Of a stretch of 57,624 nt of DNA, positions 3,250-44,473 are shown one piece after another (the stretch's first letter is position 1; every line of letters begins with the position of its first letter). The DNA comes from a virus (Duplodnaviria; Caudoviricetes): the IMG/VR virus record IMGVR_UViG_3300025357_000014, positions 1 through 57,624 of that record; one strand, 5' to 3'. Below the pieces are notes generated by a model. The model saw nothing but the letters and a program-made list of their open reading frames with translations. It searched no databases and had not been told where the DNA came from. The translations under genes were made by a program, and so were the position numbers.

Positions 3250-4005
3250 ATGAGTGAAGCAACCTACGAAGGCATGCCTATCCCACAGTGCTACATTGAC
3301 ATTCAAGATGCTTTGGAGTCTGGTACAGATCGTATCATTCTCTACGGTCGTCCTGGTACTGGTAAGACTTACTCCGGCCTCACAGCTGGTGTGTCTGATC
3401 CAAGTCAGTCTGAGCGTCTAGTATGTACTGAGGACATGACATCAGCCGACGTTTCAGGTGCATTCATGCCTAACGTAAGCGGTGGGTTTGAGTTCCTACC
3501 TGGTGCAGCTTTGCGTGCTTGGACCAACGGTACTCGTTTAGTTATTGACGAGATCGATAAAGCTGGCGGTGACGTATTCGCCCAGCTCCTAGCATTCACT
3601 GACACCGTAGACTCAGCATCATTTACACGACCAGACAATGGGGAAGTAGTTCGTCCTAAGCCTGGTTTCTCTGTTGTGATGACCTCTAACATTGAGGATC
3701 CACGTGACCTGCCTACTGCACTTAAGGACCGGTTCCCGTTTGCAATCGAAGTCAATGCAGCACACCCTGCTGCCTTGGTTAAGTTGCCACCACAGCTTCG
3801 TCTGTTGGCTGCAACTATGATTGCTGCAGAGCCTGGTCAACGTGCTAGTTTGCGTGCGTTCTATGAGTTCAATCGTCTACTATCTGGTGGTCGGTTCTCT
3901 CTTGAGCGTGCAGCTAACCTGATCTTCGGACCAGTGTTAGCAACGCAGATCATACGCTGCATGTCTGTTGGCACATTGGAGCCTGAATTCACACTCACGG
4001 TGTAA
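3250..4005 (+). CDS. MoxR/CbbQ-type AAA+ ATPase
   Basis: Walker A GRPGTGKT, Walker B LVIDEID, sensor TSN, arginine finger ALKDRF. Confidence 0.88.
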   Translation: MSEATYEGMPIPQCYIDIQDALESGTDRIILYGRPGTGKTYSGLTAGVSDPSQSERLVCTEDMTSADVSGAFMPNVSGGFEFLPGAALRAWTNGTRLVIDEIDKAGGDVFAQLLAFTDTVDSASFTRPDNGEVVRPKPGFSVVMTSNIEDPRDLPTALKDRFPFAIEVNAAHPAALVKLPPQLRLLAATMIAAEPGQRASLRAFYEFNRLLSGGRFSLERAANLIFGPVLATQIIRCMSVGTLEPEFTLTV

Positions 4006-4008
4006 ATC

Positions 4009-5493
4009 ATGAGTGACGAACTAATGGATCCAATTATTCCACTAGCTGATGTTGTGTCTGCATTTCGTGATGACATAACTACAACAACTAAGTGGCAAGT
4101 GCAAGCAACAGCAGGTGAGTTCGGTGCTGGTGTTGACTTTGCTGCTGGGATTCTAGCTGTCCCCCTCTCGGGTGACAGTTATTCTCAGCAAGTACAGTTA
4201 CGCAAGCTAGTTGAACTACGTTGTTCTCCTACTGATCCAGCTTTATACAAACAAGTAGCTACCTTTTATCAGGAACAAGGTATCACTGAGAGTGTTCTCC
4301 GTGCTGCCGAAGCTGCTCGTATCTCAGCTATCACTGAGAAGTTTGCTGTACAGTTTGGTTTGAAATCAGAACCAGATGGATCAGAGAAGAATCGTGGCAA
4401 GAATCTAGCATCTGCTAAGTCTGCTGCTGCATGGGACCAGGCTGTTGAGTTCACACTTAGACATCATGGTACGAAAGCCTTTGACTCGTTCGCGAGTGGT
4501 GTTCGTGCCGTTAATCCTGAGTGGAGCAAGTCATTGCGTGCTCTCAACAAGCGACTCACTAGTACACTAGCTGGTTCAGCACGTGGTCTCGGTGACACTA
4601 GTCCAATGCAATTTGGCCATGGTGTTACTGGGCCTGCTGGTTTTGCCAACTCTGTGTATGCTGCTAGTGTTGTACGTGACTACTTGTCAGATGGATATAA
4701 AGCTCCTGATGACATGCGAAGAATGCGTCAAGCACTAGAAGAGAAGCGTGCTGAAAACTATGGTGATGTTGATCCTAAAGATTTATCTGAGCGAGGTAAA
4801 TTAACTCCGCAAGAGATGAGTGTTGACGACGATATTCCTGATGGTTTTGAGTTTAGTGACGACTCTGACTTTGGTAAGCTACGTGTTTGTGACACGTTGC
4901 CACTAACAGTTGAGGTTCCAGGTTACATGCATCGTAAACGTAAAGCAATGACATCTGGTCGTCGCATTGCGTATCCATCTCGTATGCTTACTGACCCACA
5001 ACGTCGTGTGTTCGGCACTAAGGTTCGTGTTAAGGGTGGTATCGTAGTCATTGACATCTCAGGTTCTATGAGTCTGAGTCAAGATGACATCGAAGCCATC
5101 GTTAACAACGCACCTGCTGCTGTTATCATTGCGTACAGTGACTGTGGCGATGACCCTGAGCCTAACGCTTGGGTCTTAGCTAATCGTGGCTGGCGTGTTA
5201 GGGAAGTAGGTAACATCGGTGGTCATAACAATGGTGTTGACGGACCAGCTCTTACATGGGCTATTCGTCATCGTCATCGTAATGAGGAAATCATCTGGGT
5301 CACTGACGGTCACGTTACTGGCATCAAAGGTGGTTCCAATGCACAACTAGCTGTTGAGTGTGCTAAGTTAGTTAAGAAACACAAAATCATTATGATTCCT
5401 AGTGTTGAAGAGGCTGTTAAGCAGTTCAAATCTGGTAGGTTTATTAATAAACCTCACGGTTATGTACGCGAAGCCTTGCTTGGCAAACTTTAA
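4009..5493 (+). CDS. vWA-domain protein, partner of the AAA+ ATPase
   Basis: MIDAS motif IDISGSMS and downstream VTDG; adjacent to the MoxR-like ATPase. Confidence 0.82.
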   Translation: MSDELMDPIIPLADVVSAFRDDITTTTKWQVQATAGEFGAGVDFAAGILAVPLSGDSYSQQVQLRKLVELRCSPTDPALYKQVATFYQEQGITESVLRAAEAARISAITEKFAVQFGLKSEPDGSEKNRGKNLASAKSAAAWDQAVEFTLRHHGTKAFDSFASGVRAVNPEWSKSLRALNKRLTSTLAGSARGLGDTSPMQFGHGVTGPAGFANSVYAASVVRDYLSDGYKAPDDMRRMRQALEEKRAENYGDVDPKDLSERGKLTPQEMSVDDDIPDGFEFSDDSDFGKLRVCDTLPLTVEVPGYMHRKRKAMTSGRRIAYPSRMLTDPQRRVFGTKVRVKGGIVVIDISGSMSLSQDDIEAIVNNAPAAVIIAYSDCGDDPEPNAWVLANRGWRVREVGNIGGHNNGVDGPALTWAIRHRHRNEEIIWVTDGHVTGIKGGSNAQLAVECAKLVKKHKIIMIPSVEEAVKQFKSGRFINKPHGYVREALLGKL

Positions 5494-5598: not shown

Positions 5599-5622
5599 TA
5601 ACCAAAATAACAAGGAGTAAGT

Positions 5623-6033
5623 ATGTCAGAAGAAGAGTTCAACTTCGGTGATCTCGATCTACAATTGGATGAGAGTACTCAAGCGCGTATTGCACACGCT
5701 GAGTTTCTTGAATCAATTAAAGATTGGGGTTCTACCATGGGATTGATTGCTGTTCCATTCACTCACATGGCTCAGGCTGTTGCTATTGCTGAGGAAGATG
5801 ATACATCAGAAGATGAAAAGCACAAGTTATACAAACGTGTTGCAACTGCAATGCCAACTGGTGTTGCTATTGTTGTTGAGCATATCAATGAGTTGTATAC
5901 TATGTTGCAAGTGGAAGCCGTAAAAATACTCGGTGAACCATTCATGTTCCATGATAGTCATCACCCACATTGTGATGGTACCCGTGAAAACTGCGGTCAC
6001 CAAGATCACTACAAATCCGATACCAATGAGTAA
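5623..6033 (+). CDS. hypothetical acidic protein with His/Cys-rich C-terminus
   Basis: 136-aa ORF, AAGGAG SD, HDSHHPHC...CGHQDH tail. Confidence 0.75.
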   Translation: MSEEEFNFGDLDLQLDESTQARIAHAEFLESIKDWGSTMGLIAVPFTHMAQAVAIAEEDDTSEDEKHKLYKRVATAMPTGVAIVVEHINELYTMLQVEAVKILGEPFMFHDSHHPHCDGTRENCGHQDHYKSDTNE

Positions 6034-6046
6034 GGAAGGAGGAACC

Positions 6047-6205
6047 ATGGAAGAAACACTCAACCGATTGAAAGCAGAGACTCAGCAGATGAGAGAGATG
6101 GTAGCACAATCAACCACTCTTGAAACTGCTCAGGCTATGGCAATACGCATGATCAACCTAGTTGATACAGTTGTGGAATTGCTAGTTAAGCAATCAGTTA
6201 AGTAG
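6047..6205 (+). CDS. small helical hypothetical protein
   Basis: ATG 6047 follows AAGGAGG; MEETLNRLKAETQQMREM... Confidence 0.65.
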   Translation: MEETLNRLKAETQQMREMVAQSTTLETAQAMAIRMINLVDTVVELLVKQSVK

Positions 6206-6792
6206 TTGAGGACAAGAACGTTAAGGCTCTACTAATCTATTAAGTTAGGTTATGTTAGAGTGCTTTTCCTTCTTGTTGTTGCATCTACATAAGCCTATCT
6301 AAACAAGTTAGTGGGCCTTATCTATCCATAGCAGCTTGCAACCTGCTGTGGCGTTAGAACACCACGCGAGTGTGTTCAACCTACATGATTTGTCATGAGT
6401 CATGTAGGTTCTGTTGTGGTACTACCAGTTAATCGCCTTGCCAGTGTGCGCTTTGATAGGCACGAGAGCCACGCAATGATACTTGTACGCCACACACTCA
6501 GCCTGAAGGGAAGTTCAGGTAGGAAGCGCATCCTTAACAGCACTATGAGGTCTAGGCCACTGACCCAAAAAACGTGGCAAGCCTATGCATGCTGTCATGG
6601 TGTGCATAGGCACTCAGCCTAACTTATGTACTGACTACGTCTATGAGATAAGTTAGATGACTCATCATGTGGGGAAGCACATGGAGGTCAGCCTAAACCT
6701 TAATTAGCGACCTGTTGGTGGTGTAGGTGAGCCAACGACCTGAGTGGTGTGAAGGTAACCACTAGCCTTGTGAGTGAGCTTTTGTAACTCTC
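6206..6792 (+). ncRNA. candidate large multidomain structured ncRNA (~590 nt)
   Basis: No credible ORF; more than 10 helices, nested multibranch closure (6307-6321 with 6545-6564), GNRA loop, two GGGAAG loops and long-range pairing 6437-6443/6575-6581. Confidence 0.7.
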
Positions 6793-6820
6793 TGTCCTGG
6801 GTATGACATTAAAGTGCCCA
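6793..6820 (+). ncRNA. H-type pseudoknot motif, copy 2
   Basis: TGTC-CTGGGTAT-GACA-TTAAAG-TGCCCA. Confidence 0.75.
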
Positions 6821-6855
6821 CTTAAACATTACCCAAATAGAAAGGCAGTAAGATT

Positions 6856-7143
6856 ATGCGTATAGAAGGAAGACACAACGATGATAAGACTGAGATTCAA
6901 ATCATTGTTAAAATAGAGGGTGAAGGAGAATTTGAAGCCTTTACTCATTTCTTTCAAGAAATGATTCAGAACATGGCTAGTGCTGCGGATGCTCTTCTCA
7001 TTGATCCAATCAATGAAAAAGTATACAAAGGCGAAGACGTGACTGATGAAATGGTTCTGGATGCAATGAAAGATTTTGCTATTCAGAAAGCAACTGAAGC
7101 CAACCGTGATTCGGATCCAAGTATGCGTATCAATTTCATCTAA
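6856..7143 (+). CDS. hypothetical protein
   Basis: 95-aa ORF with an ACCCAAATAGAAAGGCAGTAAG leader. Confidence 0.75.
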   Translation: MRIEGRHNDDKTEIQIIVKIEGEGEFEAFTHFFQEMIQNMASAADALLIDPINEKVYKGEDVTDEMVLDAMKDFAIQKATEANRDSDPSMRINFI

Positions 7144-7629: not shown

Positions 7630-8298
7630 ATGTCTAAGGACATTTTGTGGATTGCTATGCGCGATGGTAAAGGCTGGGCTTCCAGTCGTACTCGTGACAT
7701 GGTAGACTTAGCCTTTACGGTTAGTAAGTATGACAAGAAAAACGGTGGATCGTTAGTTGTCATTCGTAAACCTAATCGTGATGATGATCCAAAGTCGCGT
7801 GCGACTGTGGTGATTGGCATGGTCTACTATGACTCAGTATCTGAAGCTAAGGCTGCAGTTAAAGCTGCTGTTGACAATGCTAACATGAGTAGTTCAAATA
7901 AGGAGAGTGCTCGCACTACACTATTAGAACAGATGTTAATAACGTCTAACACCAATGCTAATGCAATTATTGTTATTGGTCATAAGGTAAGATCACAAGG
8001 TCATTACAGTTCAACTACTGTTATGAATAGTGTTAATACTACAGTTGAAAGCACAATGCAGGAGGAAGTTGAAGCTGAAATAGAGCGTAGACTAGAAGCT
8101 GCACCAGATGCTATGCAACAATGGTTAGACATGACTAAAGATCTTACTGAGACTTTTAGCATGACCAAAGCTGTAGCAGATGTACAAGCAGTAGTTGAGG
8201 TTGCCTTTGACCCTAGCACATGGCAAGAAGGTCAGCCTTACCCATCAGAGTACATGCTGGTGGGTGGTCGTCTCATGAAGATGGAATGGCCTAAGTAG
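7630..8298 (+). CDS. hypothetical protein
   Basis: 222-aa ORF with an AACCAAAAGTAAGAAAGGA leader. Confidence 0.8.
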   Translation: MSKDILWIAMRDGKGWASSRTRDMVDLAFTVSKYDKKNGGSLVVIRKPNRDDDPKSRATVVIGMVYYDSVSEAKAAVKAAVDNANMSSSNKESARTTLLEQMLITSNTNANAIIVIGHKVRSQGHYSSTTVMNSVNTTVESTMQEEVEAEIERRLEAAPDAMQQWLDMTKDLTETFSMTKAVADVQAVVEVAFDPSTWQEGQPYPSEYMLVGGRLMKMEWPK

Positions 8299-8307
8299 TA
8301 TCGTAGT

Positions 8308-8336
8308 ATCACCTGGGTATGTGATTAAACTGCCCA
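8308..8336 (+). ncRNA. H-type pseudoknot motif, copy 3
   Basis: ATCAC-CTGGGTAT-GTGAT-TAAAC-TGCCCA. Confidence 0.75.
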
Positions 8337-8365
8337 TTCAAACTAAAATAAGTAAGGAATATATA

Positions 8366-25851: not shown

Positions 25852-26060
25852 TCTTTGTCTTTCTTCCAATTTAAATAGTTCCTAATGTATGCACCCATGT
25901 ATAAAGCAGAAGCAAATATAAAACCATATTGATGTGTATTTAAAGCATAAGCTACCCAAAGACATTCATTCAAAAATAAAATAATCCATCCATAGATATT
26001 CTTACTACCTATAGTAAAGACACCAAAGCCTCCGACAACTGCCAGTATCCATGACCACAT
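25848..26060 (-). CDS. small membrane protein (PnuC-like half)
   Basis: Three hydrophobic segments; GW...NE.LW.AYA...QYGFI pattern. Confidence 0.6.
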   Translation of the reverse strand: MWSWILAVVGGFGVFTIGSKNIYGWIILFLNECLWVAYALNTHQYGFIFASALYMGAYIRNYLNWKKDKE

Positions 26061-44378: not shown

Positions 44379-44400
44379 ACTATTCCTTTACTTTACTATG

Positions 44401-44473
44401 TGCCCCAGGCAAGACTCGAACTTGCAACCTGCGGGTTAGAACTCCGATGCTCTATCCGTTGAGCTACTAGGGC
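44401..44473 (-). tRNA. tRNA-Arg(TCT)
   Basis: GCCCTAG-TA-GCTC AACGGATA GAGC-A-TCGGA GTTCTAA CCCGC-AGGTT-GCAAG TTCGAGT CTTGC-CTGGGGC-A; A20 Arg identity element; no encoded CCA; two anticodon-stem mismatches. Confidence 0.85.

Follow-up and report, generated by a model that had tools for sequence, protein, structure and literature searches.

The window analysed here is a 57.6-kb IMG/VR virus record (IMGVR_UViG_3300025357_000014; Duplodnaviria, Caudoviricetes; 57,624 nucleotides). At positions 6206-6827 of its + strand lies a non-coding element that very probably represents a genuine structured RNA family missing from Rfam, the RNA family database used throughout in its release 15. The comparisons described below showed the predicted RNA to be a tandem chain of self-folding units, each opening with a module we call M1; the chain as a whole ends in another module, M3. 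Taken as a whole, the evidence is best explained by an uncatalogued modular + strand RNA encoded among early genes that would act as a multivalent platform, to which we assign a probability of roughly 0.45. A first-pass annotation, made from the letters of the window only, had proposed a novel large multi-part non-coding phage RNA at 6206-6792. This was borne out by the lack of any Rfam match and by strong covariation with the homologues of 15 other viral contigs, but the 3′ end had been set too early and lies instead at about 6827, past a conserved hairpin at 6798-6820.

The element extends from the stop of a small open reading frame (ORF) of 52 codons (6047-6205) to the terminal hairpin and its CACUUAAAC tail. 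It occupies a gap of 650 bases (6206-6855) before the next start at 6856, and no frame in this gap is conserved; ORF-free elements homologous to 6206-6827 sit at the same place in relatives. The longest ORF of the gap (6395-6622) would encode 75 aa, but it is reduced to 42 aa in contig L001, the DNA of which is 98 % identical, and to 36 aa in L002. Coding function, which the first-pass annotation had named among the findings that would speak against its proposal, is not indicated: the frame is broken in relatives, each of the 13 distinct elements has at least six stops in every frame, and the conserved open frame expected of a coding gene is absent. The + strand folds with a minimum free energy (MFE) of -224.1 kcal/mol, compared with -190.1 +/- 5.2 for shuffled sequences (z -6.5; none of the 20 shuffles folded as well), and the z-score of the - strand is -4.2. 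The GC content of the element is 0.49, against about 0.40 elsewhere.

No Rfam model reached its gathering score anywhere in the window, and nothing real appeared at E <= 10 in 6000-7000, where the three matches, all noise, were dinG (15.7 bits, E 7.4), MIR1523 and HOTAIRM1_3. When the models were run on the corresponding loci of eight relatives at E <= 5 or <= 1, no ROOL, GOLLD, riboswitch or Y RNA match was recovered, and ARAGORN predicted neither tRNA nor tmRNA in the elements. By the absence of such matches we ruled out an intron, RNase P RNA, tmRNA, a known riboswitch and a known self-cleaving ribozyme. The first-pass annotation had likewise seen no signs of RNase P, tmRNA or group I/II introns and had made no identification with ROOL or GOLLD, the covariance models of which were indeed unmatched.

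The module that stays invariant at the head of every unit is M1. It starts with (A/U)CUCA, continues with a 7-bp stem, in which the sequence is free, around a GGGAAG hexaloop, and has, after the 3′ stem strand, an AGG that begins the next hairpin. In an alignment of 30 distinct copies preselected for at least 6 of 7 pairs (A4), changes on both sides were found at 7/7 pairs, and all 210 cells (100 %) were paired, compared with 74.6 % in shuffles and at most 56 % in slid alignments. The loop reads GGGAAG in 26 of the 30 copies, with GAGAAG and GAGCAG as variants. A census that relied on the loop only recovered 33 distinct GGGAAG sites in the 13 elements; 27 of them have 7/7 flanking pairs, and not one A.C pair occurs in these 27 full hairpins. 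At pair 1 of M1, G.U or U.G accounts for 17 of 30 cells in A4. The + strand is the RNA strand, because such frequent G.U pairs would be A.C on the other strand or in DNA.

The sequence-only M1 pattern CTCA-N6-GGGGAAGC-N6-AGG retrieved 37 IMG/VR stretches, of which the 13 from contigs of the family pair 7/7 and the other 24 at most 4/7. A covariance model of M1 (R1) gave 48 matches (E <= 1) in 717 kb, all within elements and all on the gene strand; in five records of 105-133 kb it matched at this one locus only, and it found nothing in 99 other loci that bear M3. By R1, the number of M1 copies per phage ranges from one (L013) to six (L020), the window having two (6496-6526 and 6660-6690). The first-pass annotation had already noticed that GGGAAG occurs twice; the copies start at 6508 and 6672, and this loop turned out to be the hallmark of the family. 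Its second repeated word, TCAGCCT, does occur at three sites (6498, 6614 and 6688; about 0.03 expected), but as a contact motif it fails, since copies 2 and 3 are altered in L002 and L003 and the word is not conserved.

Two further modules covary. M2 is a hairpin of 12-14 bp with a UUCRUU-type or GUCAU loop. In an alignment of 21 copies, which were also preselected for pairing (A7), covariation was seen at 12/12 pairs, and at three of the M2 pairs G.U or U.G is the commonest type. M4, also a hairpin but a short one, has a loop of the (U/C)GACCCAAAAA type. Together with M1 they form what we call the alpha unit, in the order M1, hairpin B, UUAA(A)C, M4, an optional hairpin with a CUUAAC loop, GA and M2. 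An alignment of 12 alpha units chosen by position and not by pairing (A8) was folded by RNAalifold into four helices with 28 pairs in all, and 19 of these pairs show compensatory changes. Pairing was kept in 98.8 % of 329 cells; shuffles gave 80.3 %, and slid alignments reached 47 % at most.

In the window, as in other members, M1 is followed by one of a few alternative bodies: here first an alpha body and then a terminal body of three hairpins. Across members these bodies fall into several unrelated types. Upstream of the units stands a 5′ hairpin (6246-6297) with stems 6246-6259/6284-6297, one bulge and a pyrimidine-rich loop of 24 nt (6260-6283, GUGCUUUUCCUUCUUGUUGUUGCA). The window shares this loop without any difference with L002, L003 and L072, and it carries one change each in L001 and L073; in the stem the pairs 6247/6296 and 6256/6287 change from A-U/U-A to G-C in L003. 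The alternative 5′ pairing 6246-6251/6292-6297 that the first-pass annotation had pointed out is kept, with an A-U to G-C swap. In the 5′ domains of L006 (6539-6575), L012, L020, L073 and L079 we observed a conserved hairpin with the stem GACGAU/AUCGUC or CAUGAU/AUCAUG and the loop GUGGAGGGUU. The sequence AAAACCCU downstream of it could pair with that loop as an H-type pseudoknot; this hairpin is absent from the window.

The next part of the element, 6322-6440, is a clade-specific block missing from L003, L004 and L072, and its three hairpins span 6326-6410. A perfect 9-bp hairpin (6326-6351) is invariant in the window, L001 and L002. It is followed by a short hairpin predicted from the sequence, GAACAC/GUGUUC (6357-6377), identical in the same three rows and absent in L003, and by an M2-type hairpin with a 14-bp stem and a GUCAU loop (6378-6410), which is a member of A7. 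The helices claimed by the first-pass annotation were checked in an alignment of five rows (A1). Its hairpins 6326-6351 and 6378-6410 were recovered as perfect in the window, L001 and L002; the block is absent in L003 and L004, and both hairpins are invariant in the rows that carry it. For 6357-6377 the hairpin itself stood, with six contiguous pairs, but the GCGA tetraloop assigned to it needs a slipped register.

The alpha unit of the window covers 6496-6613 and is included in A8. Its M1 (6496-6523; R1 42.5 bits, E 3.4e-9) is made of CUCA (6497-6500), the stem 6501-6507/6514-6520, GGGAAG (6508-6513) and AGG (6521-6523). Hairpin B, AGGA/UCCU followed by UUAACA (6521-6534), corresponds to helix 2 of the RNAalifold prediction on A8, and in 3 of the 12 alpha units it changes to AGUG/CACU. 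M4 (6556-6578), helix 3 on A8, has the stem GCCAC/GUGGC and the A-rich loop UGACCCAAAAAAC; the stem varies to GCUAC/GUAGC in L002 and GCUAUG/CAUAGC in L005 and L020. The unit closes with an M2 of 13 bp (6581-6611), preceded by AA and with a GUCAU loop. It shows compensatory changes in L002 and L003, and the hairpin proposed at this place by the first-pass annotation was confirmed by such changes at five pairs. Behind a third ACUCAG at 6612 comes a variable 9-bp hairpin, CUAACUUAU/AUAAGUUAG (6619-6656), predicted from the sequence and the MFE fold. In L003 this arm is replaced by unrelated sequence, with 21 of 45 aligned bases identical over 6614-6659.

The terminal unit (6660-6795) opens with the second M1 (6660-6687; R1 44.9 bits, E 6.6e-10), composed of CUCA (6661-6664), the stem 6665-6671/6678-6684, GGGAAG (6672-6677) and AGG (6685-6687). 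The AUGUG/CACAU of its stem becomes AUGAG/CUCAU in L002 and L003. The terminal body (6685-6763) contains hairpins B (6685-6688/6697-6700), C (6713-6719/6731-6737) and D (6743-6748/6758-6763). At the pair of hairpin C that closes its loop, the window has U.G, L001 has U-A and L002 has C-G; hairpin D, with the loop GUGAAGGUA, has a different stem (UUAGAGU/ACUCUGG) and nearly the same loop in L072. The element ends with the M3 terminal hairpin (6796-6827), which consists of CC, the stem 6798-6804/6814-6820, the loop GACAUUAAA and CUUAAAC.

The larger helices had a mixed fate in A1. Of the two that the first-pass annotation had drawn around its second domain, 6315-6321/6545-6551 is kept in all rows apart from one terminal pair in L002; 6307-6314/6557-6564 stood in part, with uncompensated mismatches in L002 (one) and L003 (two). 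The nested arm 6446-6453/6524-6531 found no support, as 2/8 pairs are broken in L002 and 3/8 in L003 with no compensation. The same applies to the pseudoknot between 6437 and 6575, broken in L001 and L002 and deprived of its 5′ strand in L003, and to the junction 6611-6617/6740-6746, which loses one pair in L002 and two in L003, uncompensated and with an invariant 3′ strand. In place of three domains closed by long-range helices we found tandem self-contained hairpin modules, the number of which varies between phages.

The window and 15 other IMG/VR contigs carry the element; 13 versions of it are distinct in sequence, the shortest about 440 and the longest more than 1500 nt. In the 15 other contigs it lies downstream of a gene pair that encodes an AAA_5 ATPase and a vWA-domain protein. 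Searching with the latter gave six IMG/VR loci with an ORF-free gap in the same place, and further members were added by a motif scan and a profile search; a broader M1 pattern based on sequence only added none. Two of 13 viral motif matches (L009 and L011) were dropped as they lie inside long ORFs. Many closer relatives of the vWA protein exist, for example at 78 %, 71 % and 70 % identity. In 65 loci of more distant phages with this gene (at most 37 % identity) no M1 was found, and in a sample of 31 distant vWA loci the large gap is mostly absent. GenBank phages gave no DNA match for 6150-6900, and tblastn of the vWA protein against them was also empty. Metagenomes and prokaryote genomes were searched with one exact M1 pattern, CTCANCATNNGGGGAAGCNATG, a scope that does not imply absence of the family there. 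The 30 metagenome and 17 prokaryote-genome stretches recovered were treated as chance matches, because they are single sites with no other module nearby and nhmmer with the family elements found nothing in them. Literature searches returned no description of this RNA family, and the strings CCTGGGTATGAC and CCUGGGUAUGAC appeared there solely as unrelated primers.

Between the window and L003, 161 of 168 positions are identical over 6660-6827 and 58 of 106 over 6301-6495, where 89 further positions are gapped, while the DNA of the vWA gene shows 66 % identity. In the comparison with L002 the alpha unit is identical at 102 of 117 positions and the vWA gene at 95 %, and the changes in M2 and M4 mostly keep the pairs, one loop-proximal M2 pair being lost in L002. 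This pattern of identity and compensation matches what selection on RNA structure predicts, judging from the alignments. Recent exchange between phages could also be a cause of the near-identity of the 3′ part.

M3 differs from the other modules in being far more widespread. It is a motif of about 26 nt (UCCUGGGUAUGAC..UAAAC.U[G/A]CCC), and its pattern TCCTGGGTATGAC-N5-12-TRCCC matched at least 119 stretches of IMG/VR; the phages concerned differ widely, and L147-L261 are among the carriers. The window has three copies on the + strand (314-339, 6796-6827 and 8312-8337), each behind a gene end. Among the matches listed, M3 occurs in 94 distinct contexts, and only five of these place it within an ORF of 60 aa or more on the same strand. 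Also among these matches, it starts a median of 15 nt past the end of a same-strand ORF (within 30 nt in 56 of 87 cases), and the distance to the next ORF is variable, with a median of 105 nt. It is often located 5′ of tRNA genes or -10-like boxes, with no fixed spacing. The stem covaries (GGGUA/UGCCC, GGGUA/UACCC, GGGCA/UGCCC, GGACA/UGUCC and GAGCA/UGCUC), and the cultured Synechococcus phage S-EIVl has a variant that lies between two of its genes (L262:1503-1528; KJ410740.1 near 25,896-25,921). A role as a sigma-54 or sigma-70 promoter was rejected by eye, on the spacing and the covarying stem.

We read M3 as a putative gene-end hairpin, that is a 3′-end, processing or attenuation signal, which here would close the RNA. 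In the longer members the element may be divided by internal M3 copies, giving two or three RNAs. M3 matched no Rfam family, and its motif string was met in the literature solely as unrelated primers; as a widespread gene-end signal it appears to be undescribed so far, and it bears on the punctuation of phage transcripts and the exchange of modules. The PeSL cassettes of T4-type phages, in which a short conserved stem-loop recurs between small early genes, may be likened to M3 only, from which they differ in that M3 stands at gene ends with no fixed promoter spacing and that the sequences appear to be unrelated. Resemblances of the M3 and M4 loops to what we take to be CRISPR repeat handles, together with presumed boxA/boxB-like features and a preQ1-like pseudoknot in the 5′ domains of relatives, were judged too weak.

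As for function, we favour the multivalent platform because invariant loops are carried on covarying stems, the tandem units vary in number and the family is confined to a single locus among small ORFs near contig ends. The RNA would be made early in infection; the element is co-oriented with many small ORFs, which hints at an early region, as does its position near the contig end. The covarying stems would hold out the invariant loops GGGAAG, GACCCAAAAA and UUCRUU, to be recognised by a host or phage protein partner, which the platform could sequester or organise. Protein binding or sequestering as the actual mechanism is a tentative proposal, with the odds leaning against it. A bolder reading takes it for a new class of phage RNA, in which the tandem array of autonomous aptamer-like units (about 120-190 nt each, all opening with one invariant hairpin) serves as a sponge or decoy of adjustable valency for a host factor; this seems doubtful to us. 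On that reading, expansion and contraction of the array between phages would tune the uptake of the factor, a protein or a defence signalling molecule, during takeover.

Several observations weigh against the platform. The M1 and M2 alignments were built from copies selected for pairing, the sample amounts to 13 distinct elements from related phages and covariation cells are therefore not independent events, and several of the proposed long-range helices lack support in A1. With its single M1 scored by R1, L013 indicates that multivalency is not universal. The neighbouring genes, encoding the AAA_5 ATPase, the NorD-like vWA protein and small helical-hairpin proteins, carry no RNA-binding signal, and the GGGAAG loop matched none of the binding consensuses that could be tested. 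A promoter and terminator scan gave no standout sigma-70-like promoter or intrinsic terminator, the promoter-like sites numbering 2 against 4.3 expected. Regarding expression, a 200-nt contig from a lake metatranscriptome (at least 99 % identity) covers 5718-5918 in the upstream ORF and not the element; it is uninformative either way on expression of the element and may derive from DNA carry-over. Among 24 listed runs there was one RNA run, with a small share of matching words, and 19 listed runs contain the DNA of this phage.

An RNA-only self-assembly of the ROOL/GOLLD kind, held by loop-loop and A-minor contacts with GGGAAG, UUCRUU and the A-rich loops as contact points, would fit the size of about 620 nt, the phage origin, the many hairpins with invariant loops and the conserved 3′ and variable 5′ parts. 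GGGAAG is also complementary to the (C)UUC of the M2 loop over 3-4 bases, and A-rich loops are present. We nevertheless regard it as unlikely, given that the ROOL and GOLLD models remained unmatched even at E <= 10, that one to six units are hard to square with a fixed symmetric cage, and that the M1 loop variants GAGAAG and GAGCAG have no visible compensating partner. The element could also be a structured spacer or long untranslated region of an early polycistronic transcript that controls processing, stability or translation of the flanking genes, with M3 as the 3′-end or processing signal. Its co-orientation with both neighbours, the lack of a detected promoter or terminator, the short distance of about 35 nt from M3 to the next start codon and the paralogous small genes on both sides would agree with this, as would the position of M3 elsewhere, close behind same-strand ORF ends and at variable distance from the next ORF. 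However, 440 to more than 1500 nt of covarying modules with invariant loops far exceeds the need of known processing or stability signals. M1 occurs at one locus only in the five records of 105-133 kb despite their many gene junctions, and the downstream gene belongs to two unrelated families, which means that no single regulated gene goes with the RNA. We consider this explanation improbable, to about the same degree as self-assembly.

Two other explanations appear much weaker. If each unit of about 120-190 nt were a small-molecule aptamer and the array served to soak up or sense the ligand, such as a signalling nucleotide of the host, the unit size, the four to five helices and the invariant junction and loop bases, which resemble those of riboswitch aptamers, would be accounted for, and some riboswitch classes do occur in tandem. 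But no riboswitch family was matched, no expression platform was seen, several unrelated bodies follow M1 and the neighbouring genes give no clue to a ligand, which makes this very improbable. Hairpins acting in DNA, as a replication origin, packaging site or recombination cassette, might be suspected from the position near contig ends, the repeated motifs and the raised GC content, and M3-like cassettes in unrelated phages could promote module shuffling. Such a DNA-level role is disfavoured and has, in our view, hardly any likelihood: the G.U pairs of the one strand would be A.C on the other and the full M1 hairpins contain none, the + strand folds better than the -, and the motif matches are all on the gene strand.

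Few large structured phage RNAs are known to us, and we know of none with a known function. ROOL and GOLLD have recently been shown to form RNA-only cages. The present family resembles ROOL (RF03087) in being a large phage-encoded RNA of ornate secondary structure for which neither function nor protein partner is known, but it does not match the covariance model, and it has tandem units of variable length in place of one intertwined fold. The phage context is alike; ROOL is often located close to tRNA islands, and the element of the window is not beside one. One ROOL example is 659 nt long (PMC12286853). With GOLLD (RF01998) the family shares an origin in lake metagenomes and phages, and in several relatives here a tRNA lies about 2-3 kb upstream. 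In GOLLD the 3′ region is conserved and the 5′ region variable (PMC12286853); the comparison of the window with L003 shows this too, as a likeness of pattern only. The family differs from GOLLD in the absence of a model match, in the variable number of modules and in size, the element of the window measuring about 620 nt compared with more than 800 nt in many GOLLD RNAs.

CsrB/RsmZ-type sponge RNAs have repeated hairpins with a short invariant purine loop containing GGA, in copy numbers that vary between relatives. In contrast to these, GGGAAG sits on a fixed 7-bp stem between CUCA and AGG flanks and is not A(N)GGA(N), so that the GGA register is non-canonical; the units carry large extra bodies, and the element is encoded by a phage. 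Y RNAs with Ro60 (Rsr) offer another likeness, as tandem structured RNAs just 3′ of a vWA-domain protein, and a phage Ro60 exists (PDB 9l5y). This candidate was rejected since the vWA protein of the window matches NorD (Z 9.6) better than Ro60 (Z 6.1), has no TROVE Pfam match and is not accompanied by a match to a Y RNA model. Among the large structured RNAs of phages, taken as a broad kind, we count the element as a new family that is unusual in its modular design. What sets this design apart is a chain of self-contained modules with invariant loops, the length of which differs between phages, at one locus among the early genes of uncultured freshwater phages larger than 105 kb, and this layout lets function be probed module by module, by means of the 31-nt hairpin or single units.

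The genes of the window include a terminase, baseplate and tail proteins, a DnaB-like helicase and a DnaE-type polymerase of 1094 aa, the closest cultured relatives of which are Rhodococcus phage E3 and cluster-C-like mycobacteriophages (33-36 % identity). The first 12.5 kb carry on the + strand a run of small ORFs that includes the AAA_5 (MoxR/NorQ-like) ATPase (3250-4005, +) and the vWA protein of 494 aa (4009-5493, +). The structure model of the latter (pLDDT 85.5) has a C-terminal vWA domain with a DxSGS MIDAS-like motif that best matches the vWA domain of NorD in the NorQ-NorD complex, and phage Ro60 aligns with the vWA part alone. It has no Pfam family and no PDB sequence match, and its N-terminal 260 residues were unmatched in the fold search. 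Because of the NorD match, the two genes look like a MoxR/NorQ-NorD or CobS/CobT-type pair, and the pair offers no hint of the function of the RNA.

Paralogous small proteins (about 110-136 aa) are encoded on both sides of the RNA in several phages; such genes lie at 5623-6033 (+) in the window, at 6609-6983 and 7923-8264 in L003, and at 5603-5980 and 7135-7467 in L072. The flanking protein of 136 aa is modelled as a two-helix hairpin with a disordered His/Cys-rich C-terminal tail (HHPxCDGTxxxCGHQDH) and has no Pfam or PHROG family and no Atlas match. The gene 3′ of the element differs among members and comes from two unrelated families. In most contigs (L001-L006 and L072-L081) about 5-12 kb separate the locus from a contig end, a hint that the early region may be close to a terminal repeat or a fixed end of the genome.

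The only tRNA gene of the window is at 44400-44473 on the opposite strand. In several relatives ARAGORN placed a tRNA gene about 2-3 kb upstream of the element, just 5′ of the AAA_5 gene (L073:546-616, L005:4102-4173, L012:13792-13864 and L079:3119-3190), where the window has none. The anticodons assigned to them are odd: tca ‘SeC’ in L073, unassigned in L005 and ata in L012. About 1 kb 3′ of the element of L072, at 8123-8185 (+), the type II hammerhead ribozyme model scores 31.1 bits (E 0.0098), which is below its gathering score of 37. An intergenic stretch of the window at 2560-2640 (+; GGUAUGGGUUCCACCAUUAACGGGCCCAC..) is closer to the 3′ terminal hairpin of L005 and L006 than to the canonical M3.

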